The position numbers and the translations under genes were made by a program. The notes under the pieces are model-generated. The model did no database searches. It was given only the letters and a program-made list of their open reading frames with translations, and was not told the origin of the DNA. Below, piece by piece: positions 4,933 to 5,199 of a stretch of 8,395 bases of DNA (its first letter is position 1; each line of letters opens with the position of its first letter). Source of the DNA: Escherichia coli (GTDB taxonomy: Bacteria; Pseudomonadota; Gammaproteobacteria; Enterobacterales; Enterobacteriaceae); NCBI RefSeq assembly GCF_003334815.1, contig NZ_QOWO01000065.1. One strand, written 5' to 3'.

Positions 4933-5199
4933 TTAAAAACCACCATGCCAATAGCCAATAGTATGGTTATAGTGTGGTACAGGGGTAAATGGTGCACTGA
5001 GATCAGGTTTAGGTCTTGATGGGTCCACGTCATGGCCGCATCCTGCAATATTCAGGAACGAAAGAATAGCACAACCCACTTGGTGACCAAGTTCACCACT
5101 TGTATAACCTGGATATGAACTAAATCCCTTGGCACTTGCTTGACCTGATACAAGCATAAACATAGTAATTGCAGTAAATAGTATCTTCTTTATCTTCAT
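4933..5199 (-). CDS. Small secreted (periplasmic/exported) protein of unknown function, 88 aa
   Basis: Clear Sec signal peptide with an AxA cleavage site (MKIKKILFTAITMFMLVSGQASA|KG). Good RBS (AAGGA 7-8 nt upstream of the ATG). The ~65-aa mature part has two Cys (GCAILSFLNIAGCGHD) and a C-terminal aromatic/Gly tail (YNHTIGYWHGGF). I do not recognise a family. Confidence 0.6.
   Translation of the reverse strand: MKIKKILFTAITMFMLVSGQASAKGFSSYPGYTSGELGHQVGCAILSFLNIAGCGHDVDPSRPKPDLSAPFTPVPHYNHTIGYWHGGF

Follow-up and report, generated by a model that had tools for sequence, protein, structure and literature searches.

The stretch of Escherichia coli DNA analysed here (8,395 nt; "the window") carries on its minus strand a small gene lying beside the remnant of a type VI secretion system (T6SS; Table 1). 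The window is 99–100% identical to two conjugative IncFII plasmids, NZ_AP045059.1 and NZ_CP074882.1, each of about 71 kb and from a human E. coli isolate, and on the sister plasmid the open reading frame is labelled a hypothetical protein in RefSeq (WP_032342288.1). The initial annotation had described a well-formed small gene, and this stands: the open reading frame occupies exactly the interval given, is preceded by a ribosome-binding site and shows the signature of purifying selection. Compared with four homologues of about 78–88% amino acid identity, dN/dS is 0.12–0.26 at a dS of 0.40–0.87; in the most divergent close pair (the window gene and its homologue L018) the core domain has the lowest value, 0.07, and in the remaining close pairs the core and the C-terminal part have similar values. 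The Shine-Dalgarno sequence is kept in the alignment, as AAGGAG in the two closest contigs (L016 and L017) and as GGAGG in L018. Because of the RefSeq annotation, the dN/dS values and eight core columns that are invariant in distant homologues, the reading frame is more than a chance one; judged from its sequence, it is a genuine gene, subject to purifying selection, with a predicted exported product. Neighbouring reading frames that overlap it in the window are spurious. A scan for sigma-70 consensus promoters and terminators returned no minus-strand site, and Fur-box scoring of the regions upstream of eight family members gave best scores of 11–13 of 19, inside the shuffled distribution; nothing here points to iron regulation of the family genes.

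The precursor starts with MKIKK as n region (+3), followed by an h region, ILFTAITMFMLV, of 14 uncharged hydrophobic residues (maximum 9-residue Kyte-Doolittle mean 2.30) and by SGQASA as c region, with alanine at −3 and −1. By heuristic scoring it has the makeup of a Sec (signal peptidase I) precursor, that is, a positively charged n region, an h region of 7–15 residues and small residues at −3 and −1, with neither a lipobox cysteine nor a twin-arginine motif. The predicted mature peptide comprises 65 residues (6.96 kDa, pI 6.5, 15% Gly, 11% Pro, two Cys) and has WHGGF as its C-terminus. The small exported two-cysteine peptide proposed at the outset, cleaved at ASA↓KG, is therefore borne out as far as such heuristic prediction reaches; the spacing of 12 then given for its cysteines needs correction, since C43 and C54 are 11 positions apart, with ten residues between them.

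Table 1. Features of the small gene and of its surroundings in the window
Feature	Position	Strand	Details	Basis
tssC	3586-3942		cut to first ~87 residues	
tssB	3939-4415		intact	
182-bp direct repeat, copy 1	4712..4893	+	T6SS side of module; 35-nt hairpin 4823-4857	
Coding sequence, 88-aa precursor, MKIKKILFTAITMFMLVSGQASA↓KGFSSYPGYTSGELGHQVGCAILSFLNIAGCGHDVDPSRPKPDLSAPFTPVPHYNHTIGYWHGGF	4933..5199	-	ATG start; TAA stop = 4933-4935	ORF list
Pro-rich linker and aromatic/His-rich tail, residues 57-88	4936..5031	-	ends in WHGGF	alignments
Conserved N-terminal core domain, residues 24-56	5032..5130	-	Gly-rich GYTSGELGxxxG	alignment
Predicted Sec-type signal peptide, codons 1-23	5131..5199	-	cut ASA↓KG	heuristic n/h/c analysis
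5' region travelling with the gene	5200..5339	-	presumed promoter	~80% identity to L016, L017
Shine-Dalgarno AAGGA	5207..5211	-	7 nt 5' of ATG	read from sequence
182-bp direct repeat, copy 2	5433..5614	+	IS91 side of module; hairpin 5544-5578	

The function suggested first for this gene was that of an orphan T6SS immunity protein, kept after decay of the system and neutralising an effector that acts in the periplasm. The neighbouring remnant is real, with an intact tssB and a truncated tssC, tssB and the gene are 517 bp apart and share a strand, and its product resembles periplasmic T6SS immunity proteins in being small, predicted to be Sec-exported and encoded near T6SS genes. However, the DNA that the window has in common with L016 and L017 is limited to a 443-bp module (4897-5339, ~80% identical) made up of the gene and about 140 nt upstream of it, with no conserved small reading frame alongside. 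The two repeats on either side of the module are 93% identical to each other and derive from the 3' ends of rpn-family nuclease/transposase genes; copy 1 starts in the last codons of such a gene (4686-4742, ending in ISADELAIMRH and stop) and copy 2 is preceded by LTADELTIMRH and stop (5425-5463), so that an rpn-derived repeat separates the gene from the remnant. Where the T6SS locus is intact on a plasmid (93% identity to the remnant), it matches the window only over ~3630-4665; in NZ_CP042885.1, the intact locus chosen for examination, a tssB-tssC-...-tssF-tssG run opens with tssB, and no homologue of the small gene was found upstream of it. Effector-immunity pairs are not expected at such a tssB-first end, and the window contains no T6SS effector and no effector remnant. 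The search for a T6SS effector beside homologues, which had been proposed as a check, was run as well, and no T6SS gene is present in any of the other genomic contexts that were recovered for homologues. The limits of the module, the repeats and the end of the match at ~4665 together indicate that the adjacency of gene and remnant results from plasmid mosaicism; the gene appears to be a 443-bp solo module in plasmid mosaic DNA, with no functional tie to its T6SS neighbour. With no cognate effector, no conserved T6SS neighbourhood, a mosaic junction at its side and absence from the flank of the intact locus examined, it differs from T6SS immunity proteins in what would define them, and the immunity proposal is not supported; we regard it as extremely improbable.

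The gene belongs to a small family that had not been annotated before. A phmmer scan of 1.84 billion cluster representatives returned only five genuine clusters, a profile search of a collection of 5.8 billion proteins added a few further members, and about 13 distinct members were found altogether. That no family was recognised at first is in line with the database searches, as neither Pfam (single sequence and every member of the alignment), NCBIfam, PADLOC nor PHROGs holds a significant match, and sequence and profile searches of the PDB gave only a chance lipase match (E = 0.1–0.26). One member has a sub-threshold match to the Pfam MccV entry (E = 0.076), which is probably due to its leader; similarity of the core to known microcin cores is not detectable. 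No description of the core motifs was met in the full-text literature and in the main microcin-mining papers, a search to which the supplementary candidate lists of PMC12219008 did not belong.

Common to all members is a glycine-rich core, GYTSGExGxxxGC-x10-C, in which the two cysteines are invariant; the fuller pattern reads G-F-x-x-Y-x-G-Y-T-S-G-E-x-G-x-x-x-G-C-A-I-x(8)-C-G. Eight columns are invariant among 14 aligned sequences (Y32, T33, G35, G38, G42, C43, I45 and C54), and C43 and C54 enclose a hydrophobic loop of ten residues. In the long forms (65–70 residues after the leader, 6.9–7.3 kDa, 14–19% Gly, two Cys) the core is followed by a proline-rich linker and a [WF]HGG[FY] tail, of which [WF]HG is present in every one. 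Three short forms (61 aa) consist of the N-terminal domain alone and end ~10 residues past the second cysteine; the proline-rich/WHGGF module is hence optional. AlphaFold2 gave no confident fold, either for the full precursor (pLDDT 52) or for the core alone (pLDDT 49); its single helix, of low confidence, covers the hydrophobic segment bounded by the cysteines, and the C-terminal part is predicted to be disordered. The WHGGF end was also considered as an outer-membrane-protein beta-signal or as a mimic of a DegS-activating YxF motif, and rejected, as its spacing is unlike the consensus.

The distribution of the family is narrow, sporadic and horizontally scattered. A scan of species-representative genomes yielded two loci only, one in an Escherichia cryptic clade and one in Salmonella enterica subsp. 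arizonae; 12 of 5426 complete E. coli genomes contain family genes, and in the 10 of these 5426 that have the window-type gene it is plasmid-borne every time.

Rather than uniformly lacking a signal peptide, which would have spoken against export, the 13 distinct members all carry an export leader, in 11 cases of the Sec type and in two of the double-glycine (GG) type. The 11 Sec-type leaders have a net charge of +1 to +3, no acidic residue, hydrophobic runs of 11–16 residues and a small residue, alanine, at −1; those of the ten members other than the window protein have diverged in sequence and have kept the architecture and the junction with the core. Both GG-type leaders come from Salmonella, MKSLSENEIINVSGA↓GFGDY from pESI-like IncFIB plasmids and MNLLTEKEINNICGA↓GFGNY from S. 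enterica subsp. arizonae; each has 15 residues, two of them acidic, no hydrophobic core and a GA end. Aligned with the leader of MccV, MRTLTLNELDSVSGG (from a precursor checked against cvaC in ColV plasmids), the Salmonella leader is identical at 8 and similar at 13 of 18 positions. For both leader types the junction with the core falls at one and the same residue, as is evident from ASA↓KGF, TYA↓GF and INA↓AGF in Sec-type precursors versus SGA↓GF and CGA↓GF in GG-type ones. In a neighbour-joining tree of the cores, which are short, the GG clade nests among the Sec clades; given such short sequences this is weak evidence, and it suggests a single replacement of a Sec leader by a GG leader. Sequence comparison defines a family that is well supported, had no annotation before and is surprisingly split between two kinds of leader.

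The Salmonella members are the ones that link the family to class II microcins, which are made with a leader of 15–18 residues ending in GG or GA that is removed by a C39 peptidase, and which have a core of about 60–90 residues and 5–10 kDa (PMC10233263). The core is unmodified except for disulfides in class IIa and has a Gly/Ser-rich tail for siderophore attachment in class IIb; linkage of the peptide gene to genes for a peptidase-containing ABC transporter (PCAT) and a membrane fusion protein, a self-immunity gene next to it and activity against related bacteria complete the definition. In S. arizonae the gene order, found on three independent contigs including that of the type strain, is peptide gene, ydcK-like gene, membrane fusion protein (MFP) gene and PCAT gene. 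The PCAT (699 aa) shares 68% identity with CvaB along a stretch of 693 aa and has Cys32, His105 and Asp121 in place (positions as in PMC10233263), which amounts to an intact C39 triad; the MFP (424 aa) is 66% identical to CvaA. No additional reading frame with a GG leader was seen near this exporter. A typical immunity gene was not found beside the peptide gene either, the direct neighbour encoding a soluble YdcK-like beta-solenoid protein of 211 aa. With its GG leader, the CvaAB-type exporter and no rival GG-leader reading frame nearby, the S. arizonae homologue is, as far as sequence can tell, a class II (IIa-like) microcin in all respects but one, the lack of a recognisable immunity gene. 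The GG-type gene of the pESI-like plasmids, an orphan, has megL on one side and an amidase gene on the other and lies close to the yersiniabactin cluster; the only microcin mentioned in the pESI literature is MccV, on other plasmids.

A bacteriocin-type export apparatus could also serve a secreted signalling or pheromone-like peptide with a role in cell-cell communication or biofilms. Double-glycine leaders and PCATs do export signalling peptides in other bacteria, the missing immunity gene would then be expected, and microcins that promote biofilm formation are reportedly described in a 2026 paper. However, the exporter is a close homologue of CvaAB, the peptide gene has neither a sensor kinase gene nor a receptor gene linked to it in any context, and a disulfide-looped peptide of 65 residues is large for a pheromone, so that a signalling role is less likely and, in our estimate, very improbable.

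The window protein itself cannot be filed as a class II microcin, because it lacks a GG leader and, across the window and the ~64 kb of sister-plasmid annotation covered, a linked PCAT: its leader is a Sec-type one of 23 residues, devoid of acidic residues, and neither PCAT and MFP genes nor an adjacent immunity gene accompany it. The size of its core lies within the class II range, and its WHGGF end is not the Ser/Gly-rich tail of class IIb. It is best described, from the alignments, as a Sec-leader paralogue in a family of which the Salmonella branch has the GG leader and, in S. arizonae, the PCAT linkage. The likeness to class IIa (MccV/colicin V type, exported by CvaAB-TolC) extends to the window core of ~7 kDa, rich in glycine and with two cysteines, to the MccV-like leaders of the Salmonella homologues, to the S. 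arizonae exporter 66–68% identical to CvaA/CvaB, to the location on plasmids or islands and to the apparent division of the core into two modules, a hydrophobic N-domain and a tail at the C-terminus; in contrast, the Sec leader, the missing PCAT/MFP, the missing adjacent immunity gene and a core dissimilar to known microcins set the window gene apart.

All Sec-type copies are solo genes and occur in unrelated contexts. On IncF plasmids of swine E. coli the gene adjoins a recombinase gene, an IS3 element and fimbrial genes; in two of the 5426 complete E. coli genomes it is part of a pathogenicity island downstream of the pap operon; one copy is on a contig of an Escherichia cryptic clade, on which a reading frame, judged by eye, appears to us to resemble an NleG-type effector. 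In Campylobacterota-like chromosomes, short forms are encoded in a housekeeping setting, with a DNA methylase gene on one side and icd on the other, and further copies were found on low-GC metagenomic contigs. In a single E. coli-like metagenomic contig, the close homologue P0002 is preceded, 184 bp upstream, by the end of a plasmid-borne macA/macB paralogue of the same orientation, beyond a SPATE autotransporter gene (MacA with 355.8 bits at a cutoff of 342, its partner MacB-like); this single observation provides a lead toward a pump-dependent route. An immunity-like gene for a small membrane protein was not found beside any Sec-type copy, and neither PCAT/MFP nor any other dedicated exporter is encoded within the window or across the ~64 kb of the sister plasmid whose annotation was covered (record 1-50000 and 57050-71435). 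In no locus examined do Sec-type and GG-type genes occur together. MNIO or DUF2063 partner genes, as would be expected for a metal-binding, bufferin-like peptide, are present in none of the contexts, and this candidate was rejected.

Several of these settings would suit a secreted peptide directed at the host, that is, a Sec- and DsbA-dependent toxin like the heat-stable enterotoxins, exported with the aid of TolC and acting on animal cells. STII (STb), a mature peptide of 48 residues that targets host cells, is an exact precedent for the export route, and like the window product it is a small Sec-exported cysteine peptide encoded on mobile E. coli DNA; P0002, moreover, lies downstream of macA-macB. 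Family genes are found on virulence-associated DNA, namely the IncFII plasmid of human E. coli, which has remnants of TPS and T6SS, the SPATE/macAB contig, the pap-linked island, the pESI-like plasmids by the yersiniabactin cluster and the contig with the reading frame thought by eye to resemble an NleG-type effector. Yet there is no sequence similarity to STII or to the ST and EAST1-type families in general (no Pfam or NCBIfam match to STa, STb or EAST1 even at permissive E-values), the macAB linkage occurs once only and is absent from the regions of the window plasmid examined, and the sole informative linkage of the family is that to a bacteriocin exporter of the CvaAB type. Further, no virulence genes surround the Campylobacterota-like and Bacillota-like homologues. 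A host-directed role is therefore less likely, and we consider it rather improbable.

Taken with the Salmonella loci, these observations give about an even chance, in our view, that the window gene specifies the precursor of a small peptide for export and belongs, as a Sec-routed member, to a microcin-like family. A Sec-routed antibacterial peptide would in any case be more likely than a leftover type VI immunity protein. The initial annotation had named a small secreted toxin as an alternative to immunity; the GG leaders in Salmonella and the CvaAB-type neighbour in S. arizonae favour it, whereas release from the cell and killing are properties that we infer. Possible, albeit doubtful, is the more far-reaching scenario of one antibacterial family with two interchangeable leaders, in which Salmonella would use a GG leader and a CvaAB-type exporter and the other hosts a Sec leader, with release in two steps and no dedicated immunity.

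On the Sec-routed microcin-like reading, the precursor would be exported by SecYEG and cut by signal peptidase I after ASA, and DsbA would close the C43-C54 loop in the periplasm; as the two cysteines are too far apart to bridge inside one continuous helix, a hydrophobic ring of 12 residues would be expected. The peptide would then leave the cell, most plausibly via a pump of the MacAB-TolC type. Because no such pump is encoded in the ~64 kb of plasmid annotation, chromosomal MacAB-TolC, presumably present in the host strain, would be the only one available to the window peptide. STII takes this very route, being exported by Sec, oxidised by Dsb proteins and then expelled from the periplasm by MacAB-TolC (PMC5985334); it has two disulfide bonds (PMC5985334). 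Outside the cell, the peptide would act as a narrow-spectrum antibacterial, its glycine-rich N-domain with the hydrophobic loop being the putative envelope-active part and its proline-rich aromatic tail a putative module for uptake or receptor binding, by analogy with MccV and MccL. By analogy only, the split into N-domain and tail may mirror the organisation of these two microcins into a toxic domain and an uptake domain.

The site from which class II microcins act is the periplasm (PMC12219008), and since no immunity gene travels with the module, a Sec-routed toxin should harm its own producer. For want of an immunity-like gene with the Sec-type copies, a non-toxic role in the periplasm stays the chief rival of the antibacterial reading: the product might be a resident peptide that does not kill, either a decoy conferring immunity against a related secreted microcin or a component with an envelope or stress function. 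A Sec leader alone delivers a peptide only to the periplasm of a diderm cell, and solo genes with neither an immunity partner nor an exporter (bar the one macAB neighbour) are what a harmless product would be expected to have; the short forms in the housekeeping chromosomal contexts of the Campylobacterota-like contigs likewise favour a resident role. However, Sec-type and GG-type genes are never together in the loci examined; immunity proteins, moreover, are typically small inner-membrane proteins and not homologues of the toxin. The scatter of the family (12/5426 E. coli genomes) is typical of cargo for competition or virulence and not of envelope housekeeping, and a 78%-identical copy lies on a Bacillota-like contig, where there would be no periplasm to reside in. 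A resident peptide is, in our judgement, unlikely.

The antibacterial reading has a parallel among the pediocin-like bacteriocins of Gram-positive bacteria, in which Sec-dependent members (enterocin P, for example) and members with a GG leader coexist. In that group the two leader types are likewise fused at the same point to small, glycine-rich, disulfide-containing cores; unlike its hosts, which are monoderm and for which Sec export equals secretion, most hosts of the present family are diderm, so that an outer-membrane step is needed, and the two groups are unrelated in sequence. The literature searched did not describe a coexistence of Sec and GG leaders among microcin-like peptides of diderms, and it likewise contained no report of antibacterial activity of any family member, those of the GG type included.

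Both the definition of class II microcins and genome mining for them rely on the double-glycine leader and a linked PCAT (PMC10233263, PMC9746304, PMC12219008). If the Sec forms are active, there would be a second export route for microcin-like peptides in diderms, to which genome mining based on leader and PCAT is blind, and the natural pair of leaders would offer a system for studying how the outer membrane is crossed and how self-killing is avoided without an immunity gene. If, on the other hand, they are inactive or protective, a toxin scaffold would have been repurposed. Either way, hypothetical genes of virulence-type E. coli plasmids, of the pap-linked island and of pESI-like plasmids are given an assignment that can be tested.

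The family would also, if this picture is true, have crossed phyla as a single-gene module, its hosts comprising Enterobacteriaceae, Campylobacterota-like and Bacillota-like organisms. The 78%-identical copy mentioned above shares its contig with spoIIGA and sigE (SigE with 350.5 bits at a cutoff of 339), an assembly that could be chimeric. In a monoderm host such as this one, the Sec leader alone would bring about secretion. The copy lies in a low-GC island and has its own GGAGG Shine-Dalgarno sequence and a TTGACA-N17-TAAAAT promoter.

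In ColV plasmids (exemplified by L028), the microcin V locus cvi-cvaC-cvaB-cvaA directly follows repA-yacA-yacB; in the window, it is the mosaic carrying the microcin-like gene that occupies this place in the backbone, past yacAB.

Coordinates of the features of the window and of related loci
Feature	Sequence	Position	Remarks
Two-partner secretion remnant	window	297-3326	
T6SS remnant	window	3586-4415 (context to ~4665)	tssB intact, tssC truncated after ~87 residues
Direct repeat, 182 bp, two copies	window	4686-4893 and 5425-5614 (including rpn 3' codons)	copies 93% identical, bracketing the gene module
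78-bp segment	window	5337-5414	
78-bp segment	L002 (swine plasmid)	8349-8426	
IS91-family transposase, 376 aa, with 121-aa ORF WP_000124093.1	window	5920-7370	
Backbone at yacAB	window	7687-8234	
Microcin V locus after repA-yacA-yacB	L028 (ColV plasmid)	3803-8845	
YdcK-like beta-solenoid protein gene, 211 aa	L005 (also L006, L015), S. arizonae	10493-11128	
Homologue of the window gene	L018 (GCA_029782595.1)	9700-10300	
SPATE and macA/macB region with P0002	L016	521-9817	

Each copy of the direct repeat starts with the final codons of a nuclease/transposase gene of the rpn family (YhgA-like), the deduced products ending in ...ISADELAIMRH (first copy) and ...LTADELTIMRH (second copy), each followed by the stop codon, and both copies contain an identical 35-nt hairpin (GCGCCCGCAATGAC-GGGGCAA-GTCATTGCGGGGGC). 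Across 5426 complete genomes of E. coli, this repeat is confined to the two sister plasmids of the window; a copy adjoining a partial rpn gene is also present in L016, an E. coli-like contig of plasmid type. The 78-bp segment, ~94% identical to DNA annotated within InsQ/TnpB (IS200/IS605-family) genes in ~245 E. coli records, precedes the gene in the window but follows it in the swine plasmids, and this placement suggests a common mobile-element junction or a past tandem arrangement. The 121-aa ORF precedes and overlaps the IS91-family transposase gene, and the two travel together; IS91 elements transpose by a rolling-circle mode by which neighbouring DNA can be mobilised, and IS91 may have contributed to building the mosaic.

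The T6SS remnant shares 93% identity with intact T6SS loci on plasmids (e.g., that of NZ_CP042885.1). Unlike in the window, this region is annotated in the sister plasmid JNE25-005 as a partial small subunit and a 186-aa sheath-domain protein; thus, small changes separate the two plasmids here. In the two-partner secretion remnant the TpsA-like protein, with a haemagglutinin N-terminal domain, comprises only 413 aa; its gene was presumably shortened by an IS3 element, because one adjoins the corresponding gene in a sister plasmid. The TpsB/POTRA transporter (577 aa), which has no NCBIfam match, is apparently intact.

The copy in the Bacillota-like contig L018, 78% identical to the window gene, resides in a low-GC (25-36%) island between genes for an Rrf2 regulator and type I restriction hsdR; it is equipped with a GGAGG Shine-Dalgarno sequence and two tandem promoter-like repeats (TTGACA-N17/18-TAAA[AG]T), and the contig also encodes spoIIGA and sigE. 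Either the gene has been transferred across phyla and is served by local expression signals, or the contig is a chimera of the assembly; in a second contig, L019, the gene likewise adjoins an Rrf2 gene. In L016, the Sec-type homologue P0002 is directly preceded by a SPATE autotransporter gene and then a macA/macB paralogue, and the paralogue may be a dedicated pump for the peptide, serving periplasm-to-outside export or protection.

In S. arizonae the YdcK-like gene is situated between the gene for the GG-leader (double-glycine leader) peptide and a cvaA-like gene, the expected place of an immunity gene. Its product is soluble, with weak acetyltransferase-like hexapeptide matches. It might be a modifying enzyme or serve as an immunity protein of an unusual kind; it may also be unrelated.

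The metagenomic variant P0001 (94 aa) equals the window protein but continues past its stop codon (…WHGGFYHVVGW); the stop codon of the gene is therefore mutable in natural populations.
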